Shown in pieces: positions 1 through 58,170 of a DNA stretch of 64,000 bases. Location: positions 1-64,000 of IMG/VR virus record IMGVR_UViG_3300045902_000666. One strand, 5' to 3'. The notes below the pieces were generated by a model. That model was not told where the DNA came from. It saw only the letters and a program-made list of their open reading frames with translations, and ran no database searches. How positions within the stretch are numbered: position 1 is the stretch's first letter; the number at the start of each line of letters is the position of its first letter. This DNA comes from a virus. Made by a program: the position numbers and the translations under genes.

Positions 1-174
1 GAGAAAGTCTTGGTGTTGAACTGTATTTCTTGTATAAAGTGCTCCTGTTATTTCAACGAAGAGATGGTGATATGAATCAAAATTTGATTTCCAATCTCCA
101 ATCAGTTTAAGTCCGCTAGGAATCTCTTCAATATTTGCACCAAGTGCCTTTAATTCTTCTATTTCTTTTTTCAT
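1..174 (-). CDS. hypothetical protein, runs off the window edge
   Basis: ATG at 174, open frame MKKEIEELKALGAN... to position 1. Confidence 0.5.
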   Translation of the reverse strand, partial: MKKEIEELKALGANIEEIPSGLKLIGDWKSNFDSYHHLFVEITGALYTRNTVQHQDFL

Positions 175-227
175 TTGTTTAATTTTAAAATTAGTGTAAA
201 TAAAGATATAATTACCAAATTTATTTG

Positions 228-323
228 TGGGCCCGTGGAGGCTCGAACTCCAAACCTACTGATTATGAGTCAGTTGCTCTAACCACTTGAGCTACAGGCT
301 CTAACCACTTGAGCTACAGGCCC
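228..323 (-). tRNA. tRNA with CAT anticodon (Ile2/Met) containing a 22-bp internal tandem duplication
   Basis: Cloverleaf with CTCATAA loop and GTTCGAG T-loop; 276-297 equals 298-319. Confidence 0.75.
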
Positions 324-376
324 TAACTTCAAAGAACTAATCCGATAACCAACTGAGCTACGGGCTCAAATAGAAG

Positions 377-601
377 CTATTGCTTCCACTTTGTTTTTCT
401 ATTATGTTTCCAAGAACGATACATTCTTTGCTTGTATCTTTGAATTGGCTTTCTTGAATTTTTAAAACCTCTTCTGTATCTCGGATAAAAATTTACACCC
501 TCTTCCCAATAAATTGGATAGAGTTCATTTAAATAGATGATATGATAATTTCTACCACATTCTGCTTTGTCCAGTTTTGCTCTGTTTCTGTTTTTAGACA
601 T
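377..601 (-). CDS. small basic protein
   Basis: 74 aa, R/K-rich, ends RSWKHNRKTKWKQ; preceded by uORF and hairpin. Confidence 0.7.
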   Translation of the reverse strand: MSKNRNRAKLDKAECGRNYHIIYLNELYPIYWEEGVNFYPRYRRGFKNSRKPIQRYKQRMYRSWKHNRKTKWKQ

Positions 602-624
602 TTGGTTTATCTTTAGGGATTAAC

Positions 625-663
625 CTAACGACAACCTGATGAATATTTAAATGCTCTGTTCAT
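625..663 (-). promoter_or_regulatory. leader uORF MNRAFKYSSGCR with hairpin over the initiation region of 377..601
   Basis: GGTTGTCGTTAGG pairs with CCTAAAGATAAACC just before the ATG. Confidence 0.6.
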
Positions 664-776
664 TTTCTAAAAATTATACGCAAATATACAAAAAAAGTTC
701 CTAAAACAAAAAAATTTGTCCAGATGGAGGGATTTGAAAAGCGTTTTTTTGTACTATTTATAGTAAAAATGAATTT

Positions 777-1451
777 ATGAAAGCCCTTTTTTCCAAACAA
801 GAGTTCAAACAAGCTAAAGTTAATGATAAACTACCATGTGAATGTTATAATTGCAAAAAAATATTTTATGAAAGTAAAAGGCATATCAACGAATTAAAAG
901 AAAATAAAAGCTATAGAGAAATAAAATACTGTAGTAATCAATGCAGAAGTATTCACAAAAAATTTGTTATTAGTGTTGTATGTAAAAATTGTAACAATGA
1001 ATTTTTTAAAAAGCAAAAAGAAATAAGAAAAACAAAAAACCATTTTTGTTCACGTTCTTGTGCTGCAATTTACAATAATACTCACAAAGCACATGGAACA
1101 CGCAGGTCAAAATTAGAAATATATCTTGAAGAACAACTTACTCTTCTTTATCCGGGTTTGCATATTGATTACAACAAAACTGAAGCAATCAACTCCGAAT
1201 TAGATATATACATTCCATCTTTAAATCTTGCTTTTGAACTTAATGGTATCTTTCATTATGAACCAATATACGGTCAAAAGAAATTAGACCAAACACAAAA
1301 CAACGACCAACGTAAATTCCAAGCATGTATTGAAAAAAATATTTCACTCTGTATTCTTGATGTTTCTGGATTAAATTATTTCAAACCAGACAAAGCAAGT
1401 AAATTTCTCAAAATCATCACAGAAATCATTAACTCAAAGAACTGTTGTTAA
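777..1451 (+). CDS. Zn-finger plus PD-(D/E)xK (Vsr/DUF559-like) homing-type endonuclease
   Basis: CxxC/FCSxxC repeats; ELDIY..LAFELNGIFHY; NDQRK. Confidence 0.8.
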   Translation: MKALFSKQEFKQAKVNDKLPCECYNCKKIFYESKRHINELKENKSYREIKYCSNQCRSIHKKFVISVVCKNCNNEFFKKQKEIRKTKNHFCSRSCAAIYNNTHKAHGTRRSKLEIYLEEQLTLLYPGLHIDYNKTEAINSELDIYIPSLNLAFELNGIFHYEPIYGQKKLDQTQNNDQRKFQACIEKNISLCILDVSGLNYFKPDKASKFLKIITEIINSKNCC

Positions 1452-1517
1452 TCTTTTGGTCACCTTAAGTTTGGTGTTCAGTTGCCACTACGTGAAAGTA
1501 GATTAACATCGGCAACC
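1446..1517 (-). ncRNA. HDV-like (theta-type) self-cleaving ribozyme at the tRNA 3' end
   Basis: P1 GGTTGCC/GGCAACT with G.U first pair, P2 TGTTAATCT/AGATTAACA, P3 ACT/AGT, L3 TTCACGT, P1.1 TC/GA, P4 CACC/GGTG, J4/2 ACCAAA. Confidence 0.8.
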
Positions 1518-1590
1518 TCCAGATGGAGGGATTTGAACCCCCGACCTTGATGATATAAGCATCCTGCTCCAACCATTGAGCTACATCTGG
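1518..1590 (-). tRNA. tRNA-Ile(TAT)
   Basis: CCAGATG/CATCTGG acceptor, GATG-CTTATAT-CATC anticodon arm, A73. Confidence 0.85.
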
Positions 1591-2001
1591 TTATAAATTT
1601 TTTTTTAAATATTCAATTGCATTTTTCATATTTTCAATATTATCATCAAAAAAACCTAAACCTCTATTGCATTTATCACACAATAAACCTCTAACTTTTT
1701 TTGTATCATGATTATGGTCTACACATGCTCTAATTTTTTTAAAACTTTTATTACAAATTCCACATTTATTATTCTGTACAGTAAAAAGTTTTAAATATTC
1801 AGATTCGTTTAATCCATATTTATGTTTTTTTTGATTTATTTTATTTAAATACTTTTCATCTTTTTTATTTTTCAGTCTAAATTCTTTATAACATTTATCA
1901 CTACAGAATTTTGCGCCACCAGCTCTAACTTTTATAGCTAATGCTTCAAAATTTTCAGAACAGTTTTTACAAATTTGTTGTACCTTTTTTCCTCGTCTCA
2001 T
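1591..2001 (-). CDS. endonuclease VII-like HNH endonuclease
   Basis: CGIC..VDHNH..VRGLLCDKCNRGLG motif. Confidence 0.85.
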   Translation of the reverse strand: MRRGKKVQQICKNCSENFEALAIKVRAGGAKFCSDKCYKEFRLKNKKDEKYLNKINQKKHKYGLNESEYLKLFTVQNNKCGICNKSFKKIRACVDHNHDTKKVRGLLCDKCNRGLGFFDDNIENMKNAIEYLKKNL

Positions 2002-2062
2002 GTTTTTTATTATAAATATAATAAAAAAACTTTAAATTATAAGAGTGAGGGGATACATGCCG

Positions 2063-2728
2063 TTATTTAAACTCTGAAATCAAAGAATAATCTTTATTTA
2101 ATTCTTCAATTAATGCTTTTTCACCTAATCTTTCTTTTAACTTTCTTAACCACTCGTTTGTTTTTACTTTTACAATCCACACATCTCTTTTACCATCCTG
2201 ACTTACTCCTTTACACATCACGCCTTCTTTTAAATTATATTTTCCTTCTTTCACATCATTAATAAATTCAGGAGTTAAAGGCCCTTCATAAATTATTTTT
2301 GGTATATGTAAGTTTCCAAAATCTTTTACAAACTGTTTAGGTTCTATGAAACTTCCATTTGTATAATCTCCCGGAGCAACATCAAAAAGAACCAAATCCA
2401 TTTTATCTCCTTCTTGATGTTTTCCAGAAAAAGAATTTTCCCCAACCCATTCAAAGAACGCTACAAAATTTTTTGTGTTTCTGTAATTTTTATTTTTTGA
2501 AAAAATCTCTTCTAAAGCTTCAGCATACTTTTCTTTAAACATTGGAATCACTTGTCCAAATTGTGAATTCTTTTCATCAAACATTGAAGTCCTGGAACCA
2601 AACTTATGCCAGCCTTTATTTTTTGACCATTCTATACGAATGTTCTGACCATCCAATTTATCAAAAGCAATAACCTTAGCATCCAGAATGCCTTTATTCC
2701 AATATTCGATATGCGGATATGCTTTCAT
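2063..2728 (-). CDS. ATP-dependent RNA ligase (nucleotidyltransferase domain)
   Basis: Motif I KLDGQN, FFEW, LFDV, EGVMCK, VKVK. Confidence 0.75.
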   Translation of the reverse strand: MKAYPHIEYWNKGILDAKVIAFDKLDGQNIRIEWSKNKGWHKFGSRTSMFDEKNSQFGQVIPMFKEKYAEALEEIFSKNKNYRNTKNFVAFFEWVGENSFSGKHQEGDKMDLVLFDVAPGDYTNGSFIEPKQFVKDFGNLHIPKIIYEGPLTPEFINDVKEGKYNLKEGVMCKGVSQDGKRDVWIVKVKTNEWLRKLKERLGEKALIEELNKDYSLISEFK

Positions 2729-2741
2729 AATTTTTCATTTG

Positions 2742-2823
2742 TCGTCATGGAGGGACTCGAACCCACGTTTTCAACTCACCAACTACAGGTATACATCTTA
2801 TCAGGATGCACTGGTACATGACG
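2742..2823 (-). tRNA. non-canonical tRNA-like RNA, GAT anticodon, no D arm, long variable region
   Basis: Acceptor CGTCATG/CATGACG, CTGATAA loop and T arm intact; only TACCAG where the D arm should be. Confidence 0.65.
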
Positions 2824-2910
2824 TTATATCCTATTAACTCTTCCTTGAGCCTTATTACTTATGGCAGGTTGACAGAACTTCGGATAACCACCTCGTGGTT
2901 GTTCAGTTAG

Positions 2911-2985
2911 TAGTCTCGAAAGGATTTGAACCTTCGACCCCAACATTATCAGTGTTGTGCTCTAACCAGGCTGAGCTACGAGACT
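2911..2985 (-). tRNA. tRNA-Ile(GAT)
   Basis: Canonical cloverleaf, CTGATAA loop. Confidence 0.9.
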
Positions 2986-3050
2986 ATGAAAGGGAGAAAT
3001 TTAATAAAGTATCTAGAATTTATTAAACTCTTTTTTGTATACCGCCCCTC

Positions 3051-3311
3051 TTACGGTTTTTCAATTTGTGAAAGAACTATATTTCTTAAACCTTCTACGC
3101 TCCAATCTTGTACTTTTGTTTGTGTGAAGATTCTATAAGTTTCATTTGGATTTACTGGGAAAGCAGTTATACACACACTTCCTAATCTGGTATAGTTAAT
3201 CCAAACTCTTCTAAATCTATCACTCAAAGAAGCTTCTAACTCTCTTTGAAGTTGTCTCCAATTTATTGAATCTAAGCTTACGTTCATTTTTTCAATTTTT
3301 GTTTTTTCCAA
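3051..3311 (-). CDS. hypothetical protein
   Basis: 86-aa ORF overlapping the upstream gene end. Confidence 0.55.
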   Translation of the reverse strand: MEKTKIEKMNVSLDSINWRQLQRELEASLSDRFRRVWINYTRLGSVCITAFPVNPNETYRIFTQTKVQDWSVEGLRNIVLSQIEKP

Positions 3312-3784
3312 TTACCGTTTTCATCTTTCTTAAAAAATTGAACTAATTCTTTTGGTACATCTATAAACTTTTCTGTGTATTCTGGGGAGTCATATAATCT
3401 GTTTGCCAGTGTACACAAAATATCTACAGGTGCATCAGAAAATTTATTTATATCGCTCATCTTTATTATACCAACTTCCGAATAATTTTCTCCCCAAACA
3501 AAATAAAAATCACATTGAGAATTTTTCTTTCGTATTGGTATATGAACTGTTGGGAAATGGTCTTTTATTTTTTTAAAATTCCCACGATATTCATTTTCCA
3601 CAGCTATTATATGATTTGTCTTATTATTTTTAAATCTCAAATCATATTTTTTATAGTGCTCTTCATTTATATCACCAATTAATTCATAACCCTTGGTTAA
3701 CATCAAAGCGATTGAAGCTTTTTTTGAATCCATATCGCATTCATCATAAAGCTTCGGAATAAATTTTCTCTTAACTTCTGCCAT
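3284..3784 (-). CDS. putative PD-(D/E)xK nuclease-fold protein
   Basis: YDL....IAVENE pattern. Confidence 0.5.
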   Translation of the reverse strand: MAEVKRKFIPKLYDECDMDSKKASIALMLTKGYELIGDINEEHYKKYDLRFKNNKTNHIIAVENEYRGNFKKIKDHFPTVHIPIRKKNSQCDFYFVWGENYSEVGIIKMSDINKFSDAPVDILCTLANRLYDSPEYTEKFIDVPKELVQFFKKDENGNWKKQKLKK

Positions 3785-3851
3785 AATTTTTTTTTACAAA
3801 AATAATGGTTTATTTAAGTTAAATCAAATCAATTTTTCAAAGAACAATTTG

Positions 3852-3925
3852 TGACCCCGGTGGGGCTCGAACCCACGACCCTCAGATTAAAAGTCTGATG
3901 CTACCACCAACTGAGCTACGGAGTC
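3852..3925 (-). tRNA. tRNA-Lys(TTT)
   Basis: Canonical, CTTTTAA loop. Confidence 0.9.
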
Positions 3926-3933
3926 AGTTTTTG

Positions 3934-4023
3934 TGCACCTAGAGGGATTCGAACCCACGATGGAAGGAAGACCTTCTTCAGATTAAAAGTCTGATGCTTT
4001 CGGCCAGCTAAGCGAATAGGTGC
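3934..4023 (-). tRNA. tRNA-Lys(TTT) with long variable arm
   Basis: CTTTTAA loop; GAAGG-TCTT-CCTTC extra arm. Confidence 0.8.
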
Positions 4024-4034
4024 TTTATATGTTG

Positions 4035-4109
4035 TGCATCCGATGGGAATCGAACCCATTTTTATTCTGATTAAAAGTCAGGAGCAAAACCAAATTTTGC
4101 TACGAATGC
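4035..4109 (-). tRNA. tRNA-Lys(TTT)
   Basis: CTTTTAA loop, GTTCGATTC T-loop. Confidence 0.8.
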
Positions 4110-4121
4110 ATATTTAATTTG

Positions 4122-4193
4122 TGCACCTGACTGGACTCGAACCAGCAACCTTTCGCTTAAGAGGCGATAGCTCCACCATTGAGCTACAAGTGC
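4122..4193 (-). tRNA. tRNA-Lys(CTT)
   Basis: CTCTTAA loop. Confidence 0.9.
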
Positions 4194-4458
4194 ATGACAT
4201 TATCATCAGGGCTTGTGTCTCAATAGTGAACAAACCCCTTATCGTTTCTTCTTACGTTTATATTTCATTTTCATTTTCATATTTTTTCTTTTTCTTTCTT
4301 ATTCTTTTTTTGTTATTGTATACTGCCGAACAGCTTCTACAACAAAATTCATTTCTTTTATCACCGCTGGTGATTTTTTTTTTACACTCTTTACAGTTTT
4401 TCATAATTTCAACCTTATTTTTAATAATAAAAAGGTTGAAATTTCATAAACCATTTAG

Positions 4459-4530
4459 AGCTCTCTCCCAGAATCGAACTGAGTTCTCAGGTTTACAAAA
4501 CCCGTGCATCACCACTTATGCTTAGAGAGC
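4459..4530 (-). tRNA. tRNA-Thr(TGT)
   Basis: TTTGTAA loop. Confidence 0.85.
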
Positions 4531-4544
4531 AATTTTATTATATG

Positions 4545-4629
4545 AGCCTAGTGAGGGATTCGAACCCCCGATGCGGTTACCCATCTTGATTACAAGTCAA
4601 GTGCAATCGACCAACTATGCGAACTAGGC
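4545..4629 (-). tRNA. tRNA-Thr(TGT) with long variable arm
   Basis: CTTGTAA loop; extended variable region. Confidence 0.8.
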
Positions 4630-4652
4630 ATTTATTTTAAAGAACTATTTTG

Positions 4653-4725
4653 AGCCGATAGTGAGAATTGAACTCACGACCTCTTCCTTACCAAGGAAGT
4701 GCAACTGCCACTGTGCTACATCGGC
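4653..4725 (-). tRNA. tRNA-Thr(GGT)
   Basis: TTGGTAA loop. Confidence 0.9.
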
Positions 4726-4730
4726 ATTTG

Positions 4731-4802
4731 AGCCTGGTACCAGAATCTAACTGGTTTCTCATCTTTACGAAAGATGTGCATCACCACTCATGCTTACTAG
4801 GC
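4731..4802 (-). tRNA. tRNA-Thr(CGT)
   Basis: TTCGTAA loop; T-loop variant TTAGATT. Confidence 0.75.
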
Positions 4803-4815
4803 ATCTTTGCCCTTG

Positions 4816-4887
4816 GGTGTTGGTGGGACTCGAACCCTATCATCTGCCTTCACAGGGCAGTGCTCTTCCCGATGAGCTACAAACACC
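4816..4887 (-). tRNA. tRNA-His(GTG)
   Basis: CTGTGAA loop, G-1:C73. Confidence 0.85.
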
Positions 4888-4997
4888 ATATTTGCCTGTT
4901 CCAGTTTCCAGTTATAGGACTTTGGCCAGAGTTTTCTGCTGAGGAGCCAATCTGAATCGACTGACCAGGATGTGTGAACATCCAAACTCATAGGCAT

Positions 4998-5648
4998 TTA
5001 AACCATTTTTCTTCCTTTATTCCATCCTTGCTTAGTAAACAATTCTAATTCTTCTTTTTTTATTTTTTTATTAATTCCATTTTTTGTAATCCAGCAAGTT
5101 CCAAATTGAGAATTTTCACTACCCATACCTGCTCCTTTTTTTGAGTTGCTTATTTTATTTTTAGTTTCGTCATTATGTTTTTTATCAGACCAATCATAAA
5201 AATATTTTTTCTCTCTTTTTCCATCATTGTATGCCTCAATTAATTTTTCTCTAATTTTACTTCCTTTTTTTTCAATCCATCCTGGCTCATTCTCTTTTAA
5301 AAATTTTTGCTTTCTATTAGACTTTTCAGCATTTAATTTTTGTTGTTCTGTAGAAAATCCGCCTGTACCTCCGACTTTAAGGTTCATACAATTTTCTTTT
5401 GCAACTTCATTTAAGTTTACAATTTCCTCTTCTCTTTTTTTAAGCTCTTCTCTTGAGTTTAAAAATTCCAAAATTTCTCTTTTATGGTTTTCAGCACCAT
5501 ACTTATTCAAAGAACGTCTTAATCTTTTACCTGAACCCATATACCCATCTTCTAGGTTATCGGTTGAGTGCATTCCAATATAATACTTACCACTCAGTAA
5601 GTTTGTCGTTTTGTAAATGAAGTGATACTTCTTTTCTTTTCTTGCCAT
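4998..5648 (-). CDS. GIY-YIG homing endonuclease (Seg-like)
   Basis: FIYKTTN..YYIGMH..YMGSG; NUMOD3-like tail. Confidence 0.85.
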   Translation of the reverse strand: MARKEKKYHFIYKTTNLLSGKYYIGMHSTDNLEDGYMGSGKRLRRSLNKYGAENHKREILEFLNSREELKKREEEIVNLNEVAKENCMNLKVGGTGGFSTEQQKLNAEKSNRKQKFLKENEPGWIEKKGSKIREKLIEAYNDGKREKKYFYDWSDKKHNDETKNKISNSKKGAGMGSENSQFGTCWITKNGINKKIKKEELELFTKQGWNKGRKMV

Positions 5649-5698
5649 AATATCTTTTTAAGATAAATATGTAAAAAAGTACAAAAACGACCCTCCAG

Positions 5699-5777
5699 GG
5701 TGTTATACCAGATTCGAACTGGCGTGTTCCTTGTTTCACAGACAAGTTCCGAAGCACCGACACGGATTCATAACACC
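5699..5777 (-). tRNA. tRNA-His(GTG), atypical D arm
   Basis: CTGTGAA loop, G-1:C73, GTTCGAATC. Confidence 0.75.
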
Positions 5778-5781
5778 ATAT

Positions 5782-5930
5782 TTGCAGGGATATTTGAAGA
5801 GAAATTTTTTTAGCGCTCTAACCAACTGAGCTACGGAGTCCATAATTTTTTTTATTGGGACCTCCGATGGGACTCGAACCCACGACCTCTCGTTTAACAG
5901 ACGATGAACTTCTTTATCTTGCCACTGCAA
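5782..5930 (-). ncRNA. Y-RNA (YrlA)-like RNA with permuted tRNA domain (Asn-like)
   Basis: Paired ends TTGCAG/CTGCAA; order is T arm, 3' acceptor, loop, 5' acceptor, D arm; motifs AGTGGCAAG and TATCCCTG. Confidence 0.65.
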
Positions 5931-6049
5931 TTTTTTTCAATATTTCAAACTCAAAGAACAATTTTTTTGCCCATCAGGTTGGATTCGAACCAACTTCTTC
6001 CTTCCGAAAAATATGTAGCTACAACATATTCTTCTAACGAAGAGGTTTG

Positions 6050-6139
6050 CGGGGGAGGTAGGACTCGAACCTACTTTATTTCAATATTTTCAGTCACTGC
6101 TTAACAGGCAGCCGCTAAAACCGCTTCAGCTACACCCCC
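6050..6139 (-). tRNA. tRNA-Asn(GTT) with long variable region
   Basis: CTGC-CTGTTAA-GCAG arm, ~22-nt variable region. Confidence 0.7.
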
Positions 6140-6142
6140 AAA

Positions 6143-6709
6143 TTATATTAGACCTCCATGTATTTCTCTATGACAATTTGCACAAACTAAAATACACTTA
6201 TCTAATTCTTTTTTTACCGCTTTCCAAGACCTACAATGTCCTTTTTGCGATAATGAAAAATCTTTTTTATTAGGGTCCAAATGATGAAATTCCATTGCGC
6301 CAACATATTTATTGTAACCGCATTTTTCACATTTTCCTCCCTTATATTCAATAGCAAGTTCTTTTATTTTTTTTCTCCTCTTTTGAACCGCCTGGACTGC
6401 TTTTGTCTTTCGGTCTGCCTCACTTAATTCTATCCTTTTTTTTCCTGCGTACTTTTTTACAGTAGAAAAGGATATGTTAAATTTAGAGGCCGTTTCTTCG
6501 AGAGAATGCTCTTTGTAATATATTGTAATTTCTTCTTTCATTTTGTCAGTTATATCAACTGTTTTTGATAAACCGATTTCTGTCAAATTGTTTTTTTGAC
6601 AATGATAAGAAATCACAGCAATACTACATTGCAATAAACTTGCTATCTCTTTATAAGATTTTCCTTTTAATCTTAATTTTACTATTTGATTTTTTAAACT
6701 CTCAGCCAT
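6143..6709 (-). CDS. HTH plus HNH homing endonuclease
   Basis: CEKCGY..MEFHH..CILVCANCHREIH. Confidence 0.85.
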   Translation of the reverse strand: MAESLKNQIVKLRLKGKSYKEIASLLQCSIAVISYHCQKNNLTEIGLSKTVDITDKMKEEITIYYKEHSLEETASKFNISFSTVKKYAGKKRIELSEADRKTKAVQAVQKRRKKIKELAIEYKGGKCEKCGYNKYVGAMEFHHLDPNKKDFSLSQKGHCRSWKAVKKELDKCILVCANCHREIHGGLI

Positions 6710-6776
6710 ATTATTAATGTTTTATGTTAATAAATATGTTGAAATTTCAAATAATCTAATTTCAAAGAACATTTAG

Positions 6777-6848
6777 CGGACCCACCTGGATTCGAACCAG
6801 GAAACACAGATTAACAGTCTGCAGTGATAACCGTTTCACCATAGGTCC
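6777..6848 (-). tRNA. tRNA-Asn(GTT)
   Basis: Canonical, CTGTTAA loop. Confidence 0.9.
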
Positions 6849-6856
6849 ATAAAAAT

Positions 6857-6923
6857 AGGGATAATCGAACAAGAGTGTTATTTTTGCTTAAAAGGCGAAG
6901 TAACCCTTTTTATCTTGCCACTG
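6857..6923 (-). ncRNA. minimal member of the AGTGGCAAG..GTTACTTCG..TATCCCT RNA family
   Basis: Same end motifs as 5782-5930 with no tRNA domain; GC-CTTTTAA-GC mini hairpin. Confidence 0.55.
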
Positions 6924-6938
6924 AAATTTTTTTCAACA

Positions 6939-7220
6939 TTAATTTTTATCAAAGAACTCTTTTATTAGCTCATCCAAATCTCTCTTAAGGTTTTGTCTCA
7001 TTCCTTTTTTTAGAGAACGATTTGCATTTCTCACTTCTTCTTTTTTACTTCTTTTTTTTACGGAGTGTTGAATTTCTGTTGAGTCATTCAGCATCCATTT
7101 CGCTTCTCCGTTTCTTGAATAAGGAGTCATTTTTTTATACTTCTTATCCTTTTTGATGATAGCCCCTTTTTCATTTTTTAAAGGCTTTTCATCTTTTTTC
7201 TTTTTATAACTTTTACTCAT
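6939..7220 (-). CDS. small basic protein, first gene after attenuator 1
   Basis: ATG at 7220 (MSKSYKKK), K/R-rich. Confidence 0.65.
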   Translation of the reverse strand: MSKSYKKKKDEKPLKNEKGAIIKKDKKYKKMTPYSRNGEAKWMLNDSTEIQHSVKKRSKKEEVRNANRSLKKGMRQNLKRDLDELIKEFFDKN

Positions 7221-7245
7221 AAATTTTAAACTAACAGGACCAATA

Positions 7246-7282
7246 GAAAACAAGAAGGCCCGACTATTTCTAATCGGGCCTT
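7246..7282 (-). terminator. attenuator terminator of tRNA operon 1
   Basis: AAGGCCCGA/TCGGGCCTT stem then CTTGTTTTCT. Confidence 0.75.
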
Positions 7283-7321
7283 GGTATATCTTATTGGCTT
7301 ATTTAGTCTATTCTATGAGCC

Positions 7322-7426
7322 TCATGATTTGTTACCTACATACCCGAATTCCACAACGTGTTTATTAATATTCGTATTGAATATCGTTGTGTTTTTATTA
7401 ATGGTATGTTTTTTAGTTACAAACAT
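7322..7426 (-). CDS. leader peptide 1, MFVTKKHTINKNTTIFNTNINKHVVEFGYVGNKS
   Basis: Lies between promoter and terminator; 19 of codons 4-23 are T/K/H/I/N. Confidence 0.8.
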   Translation of the reverse strand: MFVTKKHTINKNTTIFNTNINKHVVEFGYVGNKS

Positions 7427-7450
7427 GATTTCTCTTTTTTTCTTTTATTC

Positions 7451-7510
7451 TAAATAGTTAAAAATTTTCTTTTTCGTGAACAATTGTACGCAAAGATATG
7501 AAAAAGGTTC
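7451..7510 (-). promoter_or_regulatory. promoter block of tRNA operon 1
   Basis: GAAC-N16-CGTACAA, TATCTTTG and CTATTTA; 7451-7494 matches 30953-30996 at 43 of 44 nt. Confidence 0.75.
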
Positions 7511-7580
7511 TGTTAAATGCAAGAAAAAAGTGAATTTTTTTTTATTTTCTTTATAAATCGCTGAAAATTAGAGTTTTATT

Positions 7581-8151
7581 TTACCAATTCATCCAATAAA
7601 AATCTTCAGCCTCATCATCATCTAATATAAATCCGAAGTACTTTTCTCTTTTTACAGTAGTTTCAATTACTTTGTTTTTTCCCGGAAGATATACCCAAGT
7701 ATGTTGTCTCCAAGTTTTGTCATCTGGTGATAATGCCCATCCAGTAACAATTTTCACCTCATCCGTTCCATGTTCATCAGAGTAGTTCTTCCAAAAACAA
7801 GAAGAGTTGGTATGACACTTACTATCTCTCATTTTTACAACTTGAGATTTTTTCCCATCAAACACTTGGCCTCTCGTTAATATTTTCTCTATGTCTTCTT
7901 CAAATGTTTCTGCTACTTTTTCACCACCCAAAGATAATAATTTTTCTTTTAACTTATCAAAACCTTTTTGAGATTCTTCGTTTATTTCCGCTTTTTTAAC
8001 ATACCAGCCAGATTCTTTTCTCAATAAAACCATAGAGCCAGAGCGTGGCTTTTCTATATATATTTTCCAAATATCTTCTTGATTTTTATAATTTTTTATA
8101 AGTTTCTTTACTTCTTCAATATCAGATGTAGAAACTGTTGAAATATATTTA
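7581..8151 (-). pseudogene. 5'-truncated gene abutting the IS1595 left end
   Basis: ORF-track N-terminus comes from inside the IS; remainder has CHxN..GWAL..W.QHTW. Confidence 0.5.
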
Positions 8152-17789: not shown

Positions 17790-18595
17790 AGTAATAAGTC
17801 TGAGATTACAACTCATTATAACGGTCTTTGCTAAGATTATCCCTTTTGTGGTTCCTTAGGCTATCCACAATCCTTTCGGATTGTATCCGTCAGTCACGAT
17901 TACTTACGGTAATCAATCTTGTCGTCAAGCTTACTCTACAGCTACTTAACCTACACCTGTACGGCCATACCGATGCATGCCTTTCACGATAATCGTCATC
18001 TCTCTTGCGGAAAGACAACTCCCTAATTCGTATTGCTACGTTAGGGTCTGAGTGACCTTTCAGCTCCAACGCCCATAAGTCTTGGGCGATAATTAATTAA
18101 ATGTAATTGCCTAACATTTTTTTAAAATGTAAGATGTAATGATAATTGCAAAGAGAGACGTGCTTATGGGTGTCAGCTCAATTCCGTTGCCAGAACCAAA
18201 TACTGATACGCCCCTCTGTGAACTTTAGCATGTTCACCCTCAACCCCGATTACTTTTTTACTTGTCTGCTCTTCCGAACCTACAGAGGTCTTTAATAACC
18301 GAAAAAAGGCAAGTGACACAAAGCATTCAGTTTGCTAAACCTCACACTTTATATCTCGGATTTTCTTGTTGACCCATTTCTAAGCCTCAATCACCAGCTA
18401 TCACTACTGATGATGAATCGGAAGCCGTTCTGACGTTCCTATCATACTATCCTAATGTCTAGATGTCCTATTTGGTTTGCACCAACAAGGCGAAAGTTTG
18501 CACCTCCCTTTTATTCCCTATTACTAGAGTTTATCTTCTCTTGCGAGCTTGTCTGAACTTTCGTTCAAACGTGACCCTAAACAGCCACAAATATC
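17790..18595 (-). ncRNA. large structured ncRNA, GOLLD-like
   Basis: ~800 nt, no credible ORF, GC-richer, many GNRA-capped hairpins, own promoter, boxA-like motif and terminator, next to a tRNA. Confidence 0.65.
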
Positions 18596-18693
18596 TTAAC
18601 TCAAAGAACTTTCTAAAATTATGTTGCAAACATAATAACTTGCAAAATAAAAGTCAAGTTTTTTTTAAAAAAAATTGAAAAAAAATTTTTTGC

Positions 18694-18767
18694 CCGCCCC
18701 AGTAGGCCTCGAACCCACGACCCTCGGACCTAGGAGACCGATGCTCTACCAACTGAGCTATGGGGGG
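18694..18767 (-). tRNA. tRNA-like gene with enlarged anticodon loop (Arg-CCT?)
   Basis: Normal D and T arms; loop CTCCTAGG. Confidence 0.6.
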
Positions 18768-18772
18768 AATTG

Positions 18773-30400: not shown

Positions 30401-30600
30401 AGTTATCCATGTCTTACTCAAATAACTACTCCCTCTTTTTACTTAGTTGTTTTTACTTACAATCTATTTTACCAAACCTGTCCAGACCCTTCCTCTGGCT
30501 CTTGGTTTTTTTAGCCTTTGCGTGTGTTATTTGATAAACATCAAAAGCTTTCATTACAACCTTTCATTAGAGCGCTTTCGCTACTCTTTCAAAATCACTG

Positions 30601-30731
30601 CTGGGGGCCCAAGACTCGAACTTGGACTACGGCTTTATGATTGCGAAGTAACTCTTTTACATCGCCACTGTTTGCCAGGGATAATTTGCCTAGAGTATGT
30701 TTTACGTGTGCTACCCTTACACTAACCCCCA
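30601..30731 (-). ncRNA. Y-RNA-like RNA in the opposite permutation (ends at the tRNA acceptor stem)
   Basis: tRNA 5' half, TTATCCCTG-GCAAA-CAGTGGCGATG..GTTACTTCG, tRNA 3' half. Confidence 0.65.
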
Positions 30732-30743
30732 ATATCAAAGAAC

Positions 30744-30774
30744 AAAAAAACCCGCTTCTTTTGGAAGCGGGTTT
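30744..30774 (-). terminator. attenuator terminator of tRNA operon 2
   Basis: AACCCGCTTC-CAAAA-GAAGCGGGTTTTTTT. Confidence 0.85.
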
Positions 30775-30804
30775 AACCTTTTTATCTAACCTTAAAACTT
30801 GACG

Positions 30805-30933
30805 TTATAATTTGGTCATGAAAATAGTTAATGAACCCGCTCCCTTGCTATAATCAGGGGCATAACCCATCCCTGCATCCCCCATCGCTGGAGCTGCTAC
30901 AGTATAAACCGGGTATGTCATTACTTTTTTCAT
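30805..30933 (-). CDS. leader peptide 2, MKKVMTYPVYTVAAPAMGDAGMGYAPDYSKGAGSLTIFMTKL
   Basis: 21 of codons 13-34 are A/P/M/G/D/Y/S; contains GGGAGCGGGTT antiterminator. Confidence 0.85.
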   Translation of the reverse strand: MKKVMTYPVYTVAAPAMGDAGMGYAPDYSKGAGSLTIFMTKL

Positions 30934-30952
30934 TGAATTTACTTTTTTATTT

Positions 30953-31025
30953 TAAATAGTTACAAATTTTCTTTTTCGTGAACAATTGTACGCAAATGTA
31001 CTGCAAAAGTTCTATAAAAGTCAAG
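30953..31025 (-). promoter_or_regulatory. promoter block of tRNA operon 2
   Basis: TTGAC..GAAC-N16-CGTACAA, TACATTTG, CTATTTA. Confidence 0.75.
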
Positions 31026-31316: not shown

Positions 31317-32585
31317 CTATGCAACAAGTTTATAAGCGTTTTGACTTTTGACTTCTGGTTTCCCTGAAATCGGAATCGTAAATCTTACTGGGCGAACTAC
31401 AACGCCCTCTATTCCATCGGCAAAAGCGTTTGGAATTACTTTTCTGATAATGTTGCCACTACCATTGCAGTCAGCATTGATTAGAATTTTTTTATTGCTT
31501 CGGAATAAACCTCTTTTTATTCTTCTGCCAGCATATTTTTCCTTATGCCTTATTTCTTCATTATCAAGGAAACTGCATTTGCTGGTATGGTTTTCTTCCT
31601 TTGCAATAACTTTCATTCCAATCAAATCACCTTTGTATTGCAGCATTTCAATAAATCTGGCAAATGGAATAGAAACAAAATTCTGATTGCTCTGCGCTCC
31701 CATATTTACCTCTTGCTTCCAATTTTTGTTCTTTCCAATGATAAGAGTTCCTATTCCATAATCTGAAAGACGATTGATAATGAACCTGCTTGCCTTGTGC
31801 AAATAGTCATCTATCTTCATATTGCGCTTAAAAGTCAGTCGTTCAATCTGATTGCTTGTTCTTCTGTTCTCATCTTCTTTCATCAGTTCACTCATCAGTT
31901 CTGCCTTTCGTTTATTGAAATACTGGTTGATACTCTTTAATGGTCTGCCGTTAATCAAAAGTGGTGTCCACTTATTATGATTTGATGTTACAGCCCCAAG
32001 ATTATCAACTCCTATATCAATTCCTGCCACTAAATTCTTGTTCAACTTTCTGTTTTTCCTTCTTTGTTCATAGACAACTTCTATTTTGTATTTTTTATTT
32101 TTAAGAGGAATAATTCTTGCTTGATTGATTTTATTGTGCAGAATTTTTATTTTAATATCAGTTCCAGAAAGATGTAAAATAAATTCTTCAAGTTCTGGCT
32201 TTGAAATTGCCTGAATAGTATAGATAAGAATGTTTCTCCCTGCTGTTTTGTGTTTGTATCTGGGTAGTTTAGGACGACCTTTGAATTTATCAGGATTTGC
32301 TTTCCATTCTTTTATTGACTTAAAAAATGATTTCCAATTCCTGTCAAGTTGCATCAAAACCTGCTGGCTTACCTTTCTTGGCAATGCTTCATAATCTACA
32401 TCTTTTGAGTTCTGCAGTTGTTTTTGTAAATCATTATAACGAATCCATTTTTTGTTTTTAATAAATTCTTGACGAATAATATAATTGGCTCTGTTGTAGA
32501 GATTCTTTGAAAGAAAACAAATCTTATCAATTTCTTTATAGAAATCAGAGTTATTGCTGATAATATGTTTTTCAACTAATTTCAT
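31317..32585 (-). CDS. tnpB: TnpB RNA-guided nuclease (IS607-like, tnpA lost)
   Basis: GIDIG, EENHTSKCS, INADCNG. Confidence 0.9.
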   Translation of the reverse strand: MKLVEKHIISNNSDFYKEIDKICFLSKNLYNRANYIIRQEFIKNKKWIRYNDLQKQLQNSKDVDYEALPRKVSQQVLMQLDRNWKSFFKSIKEWKANPDKFKGRPKLPRYKHKTAGRNILIYTIQAISKPELEEFILHLSGTDIKIKILHNKINQARIIPLKNKKYKIEVVYEQRRKNRKLNKNLVAGIDIGVDNLGAVTSNHNKWTPLLINGRPLKSINQYFNKRKAELMSELMKEDENRRTSNQIERLTFKRNMKIDDYLHKASRFIINRLSDYGIGTLIIGKNKNWKQEVNMGAQSNQNFVSIPFARFIEMLQYKGDLIGMKVIAKEENHTSKCSFLDNEEIRHKEKYAGRRIKRGLFRSNKKILINADCNGSGNIIRKVIPNAFADGIEGVVVRPVRFTIPISGKPEVKSQNAYKLVA

Positions 32586-51115: not shown

Positions 51116-51190
51116 AAATCAGTTATTTTTTATAAATATACAAATTTTGTCAATTATACGCAAAACAATAATAAAGGTTCCTTTTTTTTG

Positions 51191-53608: not shown

Positions 53609-53616
53609 ATATTTTG

Positions 53617-53706
53617 CACGTTGGGAAGGATTCGAACCCTCGAAGAGTTAATTACACTCTTTACAGTTTTGGAGACTGCTGCCTTCAACCACTCGGCCAC
53701 CAACGT
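53617..53706 (-). tRNA. tRNA with CCA anticodon and long variable arm
   Basis: CTCCAAA loop; AAGAGT..ACTCTT extra arm. Confidence 0.8.
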
Positions 53707-54255: not shown

Positions 54256-54288
54256 AAAAAACCCCAGCTCTTTTGCAGAACCAGGGTT
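54256..54288 (-). terminator. attenuator terminator of tRNA operon 3
   Basis: AACCCTGGTTCT/AGAGCTGGGGTT stem then T tract. Confidence 0.75.
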
Positions 54289-54321
54289 ATACTGTTTTAA
54301 CTTAAATATCTTTTAGAAAAG

Positions 54322-54411
54322 TTACGACAATATAGATGCTGGTCCGCTAGTTCTTTTTGAACTCGAACTTGAACTTCTCCAAGACCATCTATATGTTGTT
54401 GTTACTTTCAT
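54322..54411 (-). CDS. leader peptide 3, MKVTTTYRWSWRSSSSSSKRTSGPASILS
   Basis: 12 of codons 8-20 are R/W/S. Confidence 0.85.
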   Translation of the reverse strand: MKVTTTYRWSWRSSSSSSKRTSGPASILS

Positions 54412-54418
54412 GTTTTTA

Positions 54419-54489
54419 TAAATATCAAAAATTTTCTTTTTTCTTGAGATTGTACGCAAAGATAATAAAAAAGTTCTACAAAAGTCAAG
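54419..54489 (-). promoter_or_regulatory. promoter block of tRNA operon 3
   Basis: TTGAC..GAAC-N16-CGTACAA, TATCTTTG, TATTTATA; homologous to blocks 1 and 2. Confidence 0.75.
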
Positions 54490-56473: not shown

Positions 56474-57786
56474 GTGAACTACCCACCCACGCCAGAGGCG
56501 ATGGGTTGGGCTTCAAGGGTCAACGCTCCTACCAACGTAGGCAACTTACCTTGATTTTTCCTATCCGTTCCAGATAAGATATTTTTTAATGCAAATGATT
56601 TAATGTTTATGGCAGCATTTACATCTCTTGAAACTAAACCCCCACACTTAGGGCAAGTCCATTCCCTATCGGATAGGGTTAGGTCCTTGTTTATATACCC
56701 GCAATTTGCGTGTAGCTTAGATGATGGTTCAAATCTACCAATTTTCAGAATGTTTTTTCCGTACCATTCTGCCTTGTATTCCAACATTGTTACGAAGGTT
56801 GACCAACTCGCATCACTTATTGATTGCGCAAGTTTGTGGTTCTTTACCATATTGGAAACCGCTAAATCTTCAATCGCTAAACTATCGTGGTTCTTGATTA
56901 GTTCACTTGAAGTTTTATGTAGAAAGTCTTTTCTTTGATTAGCTACTTTTTCGTGGATTACGGCTAATTTTTGCTTTGTTCTTTTACCTTTATGTTTTGA
57001 GTATTTGCGTTGTACATACTTTAATTTAGATTGTGCTTTACAAAGGTGTTTTGGATTTTCAAACTCTTTTCCGTCAGATGCGACAAGATATGTTTTAATT
57101 CCTAAATCAATTCCAATTGTTGTATTTTCTCTAACCCTTGCTTTTGGTTTTGCATCTTCTCCTGTATCACATAGTATTGAAACAAAATATTTTCCTGTCG
57201 GTGTTCTGCTTATTGTCGCTTGCCTAATCGCACCTTTAATTGGTCTGTGTACAACAATATCAATTCCTTTCCTGAACTTTGGGATAACCAACTTGCCGTT
57301 TTTTAATGAAACATTTTGTGGAATATTGAAACTACCACCGCTTGATTTCTTTTTAAATTTTGGAAACTTGTTTTGCCCTTTAAAAAATGCAGTGTATGAT
57401 TTGTCTAAGTTAGTTATTGATTGTTGCAAAGATTGACTGTTAATTTCTTTAAGCCATTCGCATTCTGTTTTAAGGTCTTTTAACTGGCTGTGCAAAGCAA
57501 AACAACTTAAATTAATCTTGTAACCTGCCCAAGCCATTTGCTTAACTTCTAAAGCGAGATTATACACAAAACGACTTGCTCCGATATGCTTATTAAGCAA
57601 GACGGTTTGTTCTTTTGTAGGGGTTAATCTATATTTAAAAGCTTTTAACATCAATTATAAATATGTGCAAATATATAAAAGTTTAAAGAAACCGCAAAAT
57701 TTATTTAAAACGATTATTAACTTTGTATTAGGTCGCTTTCATCCCACCCACAGCAAAGCTGATGAGTGGGCTTTCGCTCCCTCTAT
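56474..57786 (-). mobile_element. IS200/IS605-family (IS1341-like, tnpB-only) element
   Basis: Subterminal hairpins at both ends; inserted after TTAC; right end TCAC. Confidence 0.85.
56479..57654 (-). CDS. tnpB: TnpB RNA-guided nuclease
   Basis: KAFKYRL HTH, GIDLG, IEDL, Zn finger, RDVNAAIN. Confidence 0.95.
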   Translation of the reverse strand: MMLKAFKYRLTPTKEQTVLLNKHIGASRFVYNLALEVKQMAWAGYKINLSCFALHSQLKDLKTECEWLKEINSQSLQQSITNLDKSYTAFFKGQNKFPKFKKKSSGGSFNIPQNVSLKNGKLVIPKFRKGIDIVVHRPIKGAIRQATISRTPTGKYFVSILCDTGEDAKPKARVRENTTIGIDLGIKTYLVASDGKEFENPKHLCKAQSKLKYVQRKYSKHKGKRTKQKLAVIHEKVANQRKDFLHKTSSELIKNHDSLAIEDLAVSNMVKNHKLAQSISDASWSTFVTMLEYKAEWYGKNILKIGRFEPSSKLHANCGYINKDLTLSDREWTCPKCGGLVSRDVNAAINIKSFALKNILSGTDRKNQGKLPTLVGALTLEAQPIASGVGG

Positions 57787-58020
57787 GTAAATTTGTTTTG
57801 ATGGCTTGATTACTATAATCTAAGCCTGTTTTTTTTGAAGTTTCCATGTTTAATTTTTTTTATGATTAATATTTTATATGCTTTTTTCCATATAAACACC
57901 ATTTATATGGATTTTTTAATATAAGGTCTAGACCTTATAATAACCTTTAAGGTTATAGCCTGATAATAAAACAGGGCTTCTAATTTTTATCTATTTATTT
58001 TTCATAACATTTATTTTTTG

Positions 58021-58091
58021 TGCGAGTAATGGGATTCGAACCCATGAACAAGCTTTTAGAGAGCTTCACTTTACCACTAAATTATACTCGC
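58021..58091 (-). tRNA. amber suppressor tRNA (CTA anticodon)
   Basis: AAGCT-CTCTAAA-AGCTT arm; perfect acceptor and T stems. Confidence 0.85.
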
Positions 58092-58096
58092 ATTTG

Positions 58097-58170
58097 AGCA
58101 GGAGGATGGATTCGAACCACCGTACTTTGGGATTGCGGCCCAACGCTTGAACACGCTCAGCTACTCCTGC
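58097..58170 (-). tRNA. tRNA-Cys(GCA), C at position 33
   Basis: TTGGG-CCGCAAT-CCCAA arm, U73. Confidence 0.75.

Follow-up and report, generated by a model that had tools for sequence, protein, structure and literature searches.

The purpose of phage tRNA genes has been debated for 50 years (PMC10264068), and how these genes are regulated has hardly been asked so far. The question is raised by a 330-nt gap in a single viral contig of 101,743 bp with 31% G+C, the first 64 kb of which form the window analyzed here (64,000 nt). Window position 1 is the contig end, and the contig shows no terminal overlap. The window carries 38 tRNA genes in several clusters, throughout on the minus strand (ARAGORN), and nearly all of them were confirmed by Rfam. 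The gap is located between the gene of a 212-aa protein (end at 7581) and that of a 93-aa protein (start at 7220). Read on the minus strand, it comprises a promoter, an A-rich 5'UTR, a 34-codon ORF and a terminator hairpin, in this order. Does this locus, termed M1 in the following, control transcription of the tRNA genes behind it? The first-pass annotation had proposed an attenuator ahead of a tRNA array, and this proposal is strongly supported by the anatomy of the locus, by two parallel modules and by the co-variation of leader and array in dozens of arrays. M1 is likely a transcription attenuator of the ribosome-mediated (leader-peptide) type, with a phage tRNA operon under its control.

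First, the promoter and the untranslated leader were considered. The M1 promoter (7510-7483, minus strand) consists of GAACC (7510-7506), a spacer and TTTGCGTACAAT (7494-7483). It belongs to the class GAAC(C/T)TTTT, about 8 nt, TTTGCGTA(C/T)AAT, which is present in at least nine copies in the contig, on the minus strand without exception. GAAC(C/T)TTTT precedes every copy of TTTGCGTA(C/T)AAT found in the contig; in the viral contigs, the general promoter motif gave three single, chance-like matches only. Since the promoter sits downstream of the preceding gene and upstream of the leader ORF, the terminator is not that of the preceding gene, and this reading was rejected. The 5'UTR (7427-7482, minus strand) is A-rich and, upon alignment, near-identical between M1 and a second module (M2) and similar in a third (M3). 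A Shine-Dalgarno sequence is absent from the M1 5'UTR. Such motifs precede just 4 of the 63 long ORFs of the contig, and the upstream regions are A-rich. Since Shine-Dalgarno motifs are rare and gene starts A-rich in this phage, and the leader is no different, we infer that the leader is translated.

Second, the coding content of the leader was compared with the genes behind it. The sole ATG ORF between promoter and terminator (7426-7322, minus strand) has 34 codons followed by TGA. Its codons 4-23 (7358-7417, minus strand) encode T K K H T I N K N T T I F N T N I N K H, i.e., 19 of 20 specify Thr, Lys, His, Ile or Asn. The first-pass annotation had stated this composition as well as the use of all four Thr codons, both His codons, both Asn codons, ATT and ATA, and both statements held when the ORF was read codon by codon (ACT, ACC, ACA, ACG, CAT, CAC, AAT, AAC, ATT, ATA and AAA). 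Every codon for these five amino acids in the stretch is readable by some anticodon of the array behind the terminator, namely UGU and GGU (Thr), UUU (Lys), GUG (His), GUU (Asn), and GAU together with an unusual UAU (Ile).

A chance origin would require a spacer rich in A and poor in G, with one frame open by accident, ahead of an ordinary terminator that belongs to the upstream gene. With 31% G+C, Lys, Asn and Ile are common in this genome, and ANN codons without G encode Lys, Asn, Thr and Ile only. However, the M1 stretch is the unique maximum of T/K/H/I/N content among 203,368 20-codon windows in the six frames of the contig, and no other locus of the contig reached 17 of 20. Given the composition of the contig proteome (T+K+H+I+N = 0.317), the binomial probability of 19 of 20 is 4.6e-9 per window. 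Thus, the composition of M1 is not a by-product of A+T richness. The stretch includes five Thr and two His codons, and a low-complexity artefact was rejected because these codons belong to the unique extreme. Moreover, the promoter separates the upstream gene from the ORF, and the same design, with other compositions, is found again in M2 and M3 as well as in dozens of arrays elsewhere. A chance origin is extremely improbable.

About one third of the leader residues lie outside the set of the own array, in M1 as well as in relatives. In M1, F2 and V3 are N-terminal, F16 is located in an internal hairpin, and the codons of V24, V25, E26 and F27 are made up of nucleotides that belong to the helix and the antiterminator. 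Given these positions, no tRNA-based explanation is needed for the Phe, Val and Glu codons, from which the first-pass annotation had predicted Phe and Val (perhaps Glu) tRNAs past the left window edge. The contig contains no tRNA for Phe, Val, Glu, Leu or Gln. Since relatives carry 55-68 tRNAs, these tRNAs must lie elsewhere in the unassembled genome.

The first gene past the terminator (6939-7220, minus strand) encodes a Lys-rich 93-aa protein without a match in Pfam and of no known family. It is followed by the gated array (6848-1518, minus strand) with 13 tRNAs: two Asn, two His, three Thr, four Lys and two Ile. One further tRNA with the anticodon CAU could be Met or Ile2 (ARAGORN). The numbers of Asn, His and Lys tRNAs in the first-pass annotation agreed with the ARAGORN result, and its four Thr and three Ile tRNAs had to be corrected to three Thr and two Ile (GAU, UAU) besides the CAU tRNA. 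Rfam confirmed 13 of these 14 tRNAs, the His tRNA at 5698-5776 falling below the threshold. Endonuclease-like ORFs are interspersed among the tRNAs, and an RNA ligase gene (2063-2728, minus strand; Pfam PF09414) is found among the Ile and Lys tRNAs. Scans of positions 1-7254 yielded no second convincing minus-strand terminator, the only other hit (369-353, minus strand) having a 6-pair stem and a poor T-run, and a motif scan found no phage-type promoter between 7483 and 684. The genes gated by M1 are tRNAs, the RNA ligase and small ORFs, and do not make or charge the cognate amino acids.

Some second tRNA copies in the window, for Lys, Thr, Asn and Trp, are 85-91 nt long (3933-4023, 4544-4629, 6049-6139 and 53616-53706, minus strand); they match the full Rfam tRNA model and contain apparent insertions or introns. 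Short structured segments with the motifs TGGCAA, TTACTTCG and ATCCCT are located at 6857-6938 and 30600-30730 (minus strand), in each case separating the first tRNA from the terminator-proximal gene. Units that resemble these segments are driven by a promoter of the phage class at position 69234 of the contig.

Third, the alternative RNA structures were analyzed. The intrinsic terminator (7282-7245, minus strand) starts 39 nt past the M1 ORF and consists of a 12-bp stem (7282-7255, 6 G-C) with a GAAA loop and the tail CUUGUUUUCU; the hairpin has a free energy of -19.5 kcal/mol. The terminator 5' arm (7286-7274, minus strand; UACC...GCCCGA) is at the same time the 3' strand of a predicted antiterminator, the 5' strand of which (7347-7333, minus strand; UCGGGU...GGUA) lies within codons 27-32. 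This pairing, already proposed on first reading, was recovered exactly by RNAfold of the truncated transcript: UCGGGU (7347-7342) pairs with GCCCGA (7279-7274) and GGUA (7336-7333) with UACC (7286-7283), giving 6 + 4 bp around a large loop and -16.5 kcal/mol. For co-transcriptional folds, the transcript was cut before the terminator 3' arm, and everything up to a ribosome at successive codons was masked. The antiterminator formed only with the ribosome held at or before codon 22: it was present with the A site up to codon 22 and lost from codon 26 on and at the stop codon. In silico, the predicted antiterminator is thus dependent on the ribosome position and mutually exclusive with the terminator.

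In the full-length untranslated M1 RNA, the beginning of the ORF with the AUG is paired to the final codons (-26.8 kcal/mol), and this helix also ties up the stop codon and part of the antiterminator strand. Since this protector helix occupies the antiterminator strand, termination is predicted to be the default without translation. The M1 switch shares the 1:2 / 2:3 / 3:4 logic of the trp attenuator. With -16.5 as compared to -19.5 kcal/mol, the M1 antiterminator is weaker than the terminator and, therefore, has to win kinetically, by forming first. In equilibrium folds with a masked ribosome footprint, the antiterminators of M1 and M3 did not appear, as the terminators of these two modules are stronger. 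The M2 antiterminator replaced the terminator in equilibrium folds as well. When the ribosome was placed at codons 16-22 of M1, such folds showed the 5' end of the ORF re-paired with the 3' end. Since the protector can re-form around such a ribosome, regulation by the late codons may need a following ribosome over the start.

Based on these structures, the following course of events is proposed, which assumes coupling of transcription and translation. Transcription would begin at the phage promoter near 7483, and a ribosome would load on the A-rich leader and read the 20 codons, which sample the five amino acids of the array and nearly all of their codons. If decoding is fast, the ribosome would reach the end of the ORF and cover the G-rich codons 27-32, so that the terminator can form and transcription would end at about 7250. 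Should the ribosome be slow to decode a codon for Thr, Lys, His, Ile or Asn, it would remain upstream, the G-rich strand would capture the terminator 5' arm, and read-through would extend transcription over the gene of the 93-aa protein, the 13 tRNA genes and the gene of the RNA ligase. Accumulating phage tRNAs would speed up decoding and close the switch, i.e., act as negative feedback. Without translation, the start of the ORF would pair with its end and tie up the antiterminator strand, and transcription would terminate by default. Accordingly worded, the phage probably makes the tRNAs of the M1 array only when ribosomes run short of them.

Two sister modules are present in the window. M2 (30745-31025, minus strand) combines the shared promoter and 5'UTR with a 42-codon leader rich in A/P/M/G/D/Y/S codons and a terminator, and is followed by tRNAs for Ala, Pro, Asp, Tyr, Ser, Gly and Met. 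Its orthologue in the closest relative (L046, 7905-8027) precedes Pro, Asp, Tyr, Ala, Gly and Met tRNAs. M3 (54256-54489, minus strand) combines the shared promoter with a 29-codon R/W/S leader and a terminator, and is followed by Ser tRNAs with three anticodons, two Trp tRNAs, Arg(UCU), Arg(CCU) and an ArgRS-like gene; the unit also holds a 142-aa ORF. The M3 leader contains two Trp codons, three AGA Arg codons and ten Ser codons from both Ser boxes, compared to an S/W/R background of 0.115 in the contig proteins. Despite the common promoter and 5'UTR, the ORFs of M1, M2 and M3 are unrelated, and each fits its own array. With the array sets defined as N H T K I M (set 1), A P D Y S G M (set 2) and S W R (set 3), 21 of 33 M1 leader residues belonged to the own set 1, 4 to set 2 and 1 to set 3. 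The M2 leader had 26 of 41 residues in its own set 2, 13 in set 1 and 2 in set 3, and the M3 leader had 15 of 28 residues in its own set 3, 14 in set 2 and 7 in set 1. Each sister module also has a G-rich stretch within the final third of its ORF that pairs with the 5' arm of the terminator (M2, -30 kcal/mol; M3, about -20 kcal/mol). In truncated folds, this pairing was lost once the ribosome was past the regulatory codons.

The window further contains three TnpB/OrfB_IS605-like genes (31317-32585, 56479-57651 and 63172-64296, minus strand), one of which adjoins M2 on the upstream side; Pfam PF01385 and PF07282 were found in the gene at 31317-32585. Directly behind tRNA-Arg(CCU), a promoter of the phage class is located at 51153-51164 (minus strand). 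It is followed within 120 nt by a 14-codon ORF and a TTGGCG/CGCCAA hairpin, and then by a 235-aa gene. The 14-codon ORF may be a small leader, with no tRNAs after it.

The match of leader and array was then analyzed in related huge phages. Homologues of the ArgRS-like protein number in the hundreds and occur on contigs that reach 678 kb in size; its closest relatives on Logan contigs share 76-97% identity. The sample comprised 42 loci from viral contigs obtained via the ArgRS-like gene, loci around RNA ligase homologues, and the tRNA regions of five complete records that range from 26.8 to 519 kb and carry 20-68 tRNAs each. A script searched for a strong terminator-like hairpin at most 1.2 kb upstream of a same-strand tRNA, and the longest ATG ORF that ends just before the hairpin was taken as the leader. 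A leader of this design was found before nearly every tRNA array of the related huge phages. For example, the leader segment KKKKK precedes five Lys tRNAs (L048), QQVQQQQ four Gln tRNAs (L051), SRSRSSRS Ser and Arg tRNAs (L052), NNNNQQQYQQNNY Asn, Gln and Tyr tRNAs (L057), PQFQFVVPF Pro, Phe and Val tRNAs (L058), LSLCLCLLL Leu and Cys tRNAs (L074), and HIHKHQIWH Trp and His tRNAs (L037).

For 40 non-redundant pairs, which were chosen by terminator score alone and left uncurated so that several obvious false pairs were kept, the fraction of leader residues matching the array was 0.368. When the arrays were shuffled among the leaders, it was 0.199 (z = 11.2; 0 of 200,000 permutations). The initial 18 pairs alone gave z = 6.3. 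The codons for array amino acids were readable by the anticodons of the own array in 399 of 446 cases under strict wobble rules, and Arg codons tracked the anticodon box, with AGA accompanying UCU/CCU and CGY accompanying GCG/ACG. In all 22 curated modules of relatives, the best complement of the terminator 5' arm was located in the 3' third of the ORF, directly past the matching codons (mean z = -2.3 vs. shuffled ORFs). Leader composition is thus statistically linked to the array behind the terminator, and the design is conserved.

In most relatives found via the RNA ligase (L060-L075), the gene of this Rnl-type enzyme lies within arrays of Leu/Cys tRNAs. The RNA ligase thus travels with tRNA arrays rather than with a fixed one, lying among Ile and Lys tRNAs in the window.

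The same parts might operate without a ribosome, either by pairing of leader triplets with tRNA anticodons, as in a T-box with several specifiers, or because the terminated RNA or the peptide is itself the product. The leader fold is very stable (7445-7235, z = -8.2 vs. shuffles), and terminated attenuator RNAs of other bacteria can be trans-acting (rnTrpL; PMC6614838). However, all leaders are intact frames from ATG to stop with the matching residues in frame, and the position of the antiterminator suits occlusion by a ribosome. Many leaders also have an N-terminal MKxxxTY pattern in common; otherwise, the peptide sequence is unconserved, and only its composition relative to the array is kept. 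No Rfam leader family matched the window at the gathering thresholds. The best match below threshold was Thr_leader (RF00506) with 14.2 bits vs. a gathering score of 55 and E = 4, and the T-box (RF00230) gave no match at the gathering threshold or at E <= 10. A T-box or another leader known to Rfam was rejected on these grounds, and ribosome-free control in general is quite unlikely, so that control by a translating ribosome is preferred.

More precisely, the N-terminal pattern reads M-K/T-x-x-x-T-Y and is common to many leaders irrespective of the array (L015, L018, L046, L047, L048, L055, and M2 and M3 of the window); it is absent from M1. The pattern may have a role in initiation or in the protector helix.

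Close relatives of M1 were found on contigs from estuary, wastewater and freshwater runs, which align to M1 at 93-97% identity. Among the differences listed for these relatives, most concentrate in the 93-aa gene and at the terminator apex. There, A7271/U7266 is changed to C/G in a compensatory manner and the loop reads CACCAA instead of GAAA, so that the hairpin is kept (-20.6 vs. -19.5 kcal/mol). The core promoter, the 5'UTR and codons 1-31 (7332-7512) are free of listed differences; those closest to this stretch affect 7330/7331 (codons 32-33) and 7513, a position just upstream of GAACC. These differences lend weak support to an attenuator. The search for runs with the M1 sequence returned no RNA run. 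A skip joint at 7356/7439 with short sides was seen in two estuary runs. Searches of phage DNA and viral contigs and a metagenome scan for the RNA ligase revealed no M1 orthologue below about 93% identity. The search of the phage DNA collection with M1 returned tRNA-Asn matches only, an exact-pattern scan of the viral contigs for the M1 promoter/UTR block gave no match, and neither the 212-aa protein flanking M1 nor the 142-aa protein of M3 has relatives in the viral contigs.

How does M1 compare to known systems? Leader attenuators that respond to several amino acids include those of thr (Thr/Ile) and ilvGMEDA (Ile/Val/Leu), while trpL, hisL, leuL and pheL respond to a single amino acid. Attenuators of this kind in amino-acid operons have been modelled (PMC1183508). 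M1 shares with the enterobacterial leaders a short ORF with regulatory codons, an intrinsic terminator, a protector pairing, several amino acids per leader, and an antiterminator 5' strand just behind the regulatory codons that is covered by a ribosome reaching the stop codon. In contrast, the enterobacterial operons encode biosynthetic enzymes and M1 precedes tRNA genes and an RNA ligase gene. Since the gated genes are tRNAs, the output would restore the sensed molecule, i.e., the tRNA, and not the amino acid. M1 also differs in sampling five amino acids with about ten codons, and in being a phage-borne cassette that can be re-tuned, in which promoter and UTR stay constant and the ORF changes from array to array.

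The T-box is a tRNA-sensing antitermination system before aminoacyl-tRNA synthetase and amino-acid genes of Firmicutes (PMC2879506). As proposed for M1, it senses a specific tRNA state, switches between terminator and antiterminator and regulates genes for translation supply. However, the T-box uses one specifier codon and direct pairing of RNA and tRNA without a ribosome, whereas M1 has 19 matching codons within an open frame. Among published systems, the closest functional counterpart is the trn array of Anabaena sp. PCC 7120, an accessory tRNA array that is silent and induced when translation is impaired (PMC8421152; PMC10272220). It is controlled by the repressor TrcR, which binds direct repeats over the -10 box, and neither of the two papers mentions a leader peptide, an attenuator or a terminator. 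An RNA ligase is co-regulated in both cases (rtcB in Anabaena, Rnl-type in the phage). The Anabaena array is cellular and has no codon-set specificity, whereas M1 is viral and has a codon-set leader.

A description of leader-peptide control of tRNA genes was not found in the full-text literature searched, which covers few subscription journals, and none of the terms leader, attenuator and terminator appears in the founding survey on huge phages. As judged from sequence, the novelty would lie in leader-peptide attenuation being applied to tRNA genes instead of genes for amino-acid supply.

As to the signal, the leader might report general translation stress or, as in amino-acid operons, amino-acid starvation (uncharged tRNA) instead of the abundance of particular tRNAs, with the tRNA array as one of several translation-related cargoes. 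It is established for the trp and his attenuators that ribosome stalling does not distinguish a missing from an uncharged tRNA. The gated units also include protein genes, i.e., the 93-aa ORF and the RNA ligase gene behind M1 and the 142-aa ORF and the ArgRS-like gene behind M3, and the Anabaena tRNA array is inducible by general translational stress (PMC8421152). However, a general stress sensor would not need leaders tuned to the array, yet the leaders vary by array and track the anticodon boxes, and extra tRNA gives no relief from amino-acid starvation. A general stress signal is unlikely. Since each leader is matched to its array and to individual anticodon boxes, and a tRNA is no cure for amino-acid starvation, the sensed quantity is most likely usable tRNA, and its shortage would drive read-through by stalling the ribosome. 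The shortage could stem from host shut-off, from a mismatch in codon usage or from tRNA-cleaving defence, rather than from amino-acid starvation.

With respect to the last of these sources, T5 tRNAs counter the PARIS nuclease AriB (PMC11464382, PMC12409363), and anticodon-loop variants have been described (PMC10264068). AriB targets Lys(UUU), Thr(UGU) and Asn(GUU) (PMC12409363). All three tRNAs are present in the M1 array and their codons in the leader. The presence of AriB-targeted tRNAs and an RNA ligase in the M1 operon suggests a link to tRNA-cleaving defence. Studies of phage counter-defence describe the tRNAs; M1, by comparison, is a candidate for the sensor that switches them on.

In a wider reading, 'tRNA on demand', huge phages would use re-programmable leaders to measure decoding for each codon set and then transcribe the missing tRNAs together with a repair ligase. 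The trigger could be host shut-off or tRNA-cleaving immunity by PARIS- or PrrC-type nucleases. The chances of this wider reading, in which M1 would be the Lys/Thr/Asn/His/Ile channel of the sensor, are about even. If true, phage tRNAs would be a conditional rather than a constitutive supply, the oldest paradigm of RNA-based regulation would extend to RNA genes, and phage tRNA arrays would be connected to tRNA-targeting immunity. Leader composition would predict the genes past the terminator, and the promoter/UTR cassette with exchangeable leaders would represent a natural programmable switch with codon specificity.

Further RNA genes were observed in the window. A full-length GOLLD RNA is located at 17797-18216 (minus strand; Rfam RF02032, 188 bits vs. 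a gathering score of 150). Upstream of it on the same strand, at a distance of about 480 nt, ARAGORN reported a tRNA-like gene (18692-18768) with the four-letter anticodon ccta. A tRNA with a CUA anticodon, of the amber suppressor type ('Pyl' in ARAGORN), lies at 58020-58170 (minus strand) directly after tRNA-Cys, and CUA tRNAs beside Cys are also present in the relatives L029, L049 and L057.
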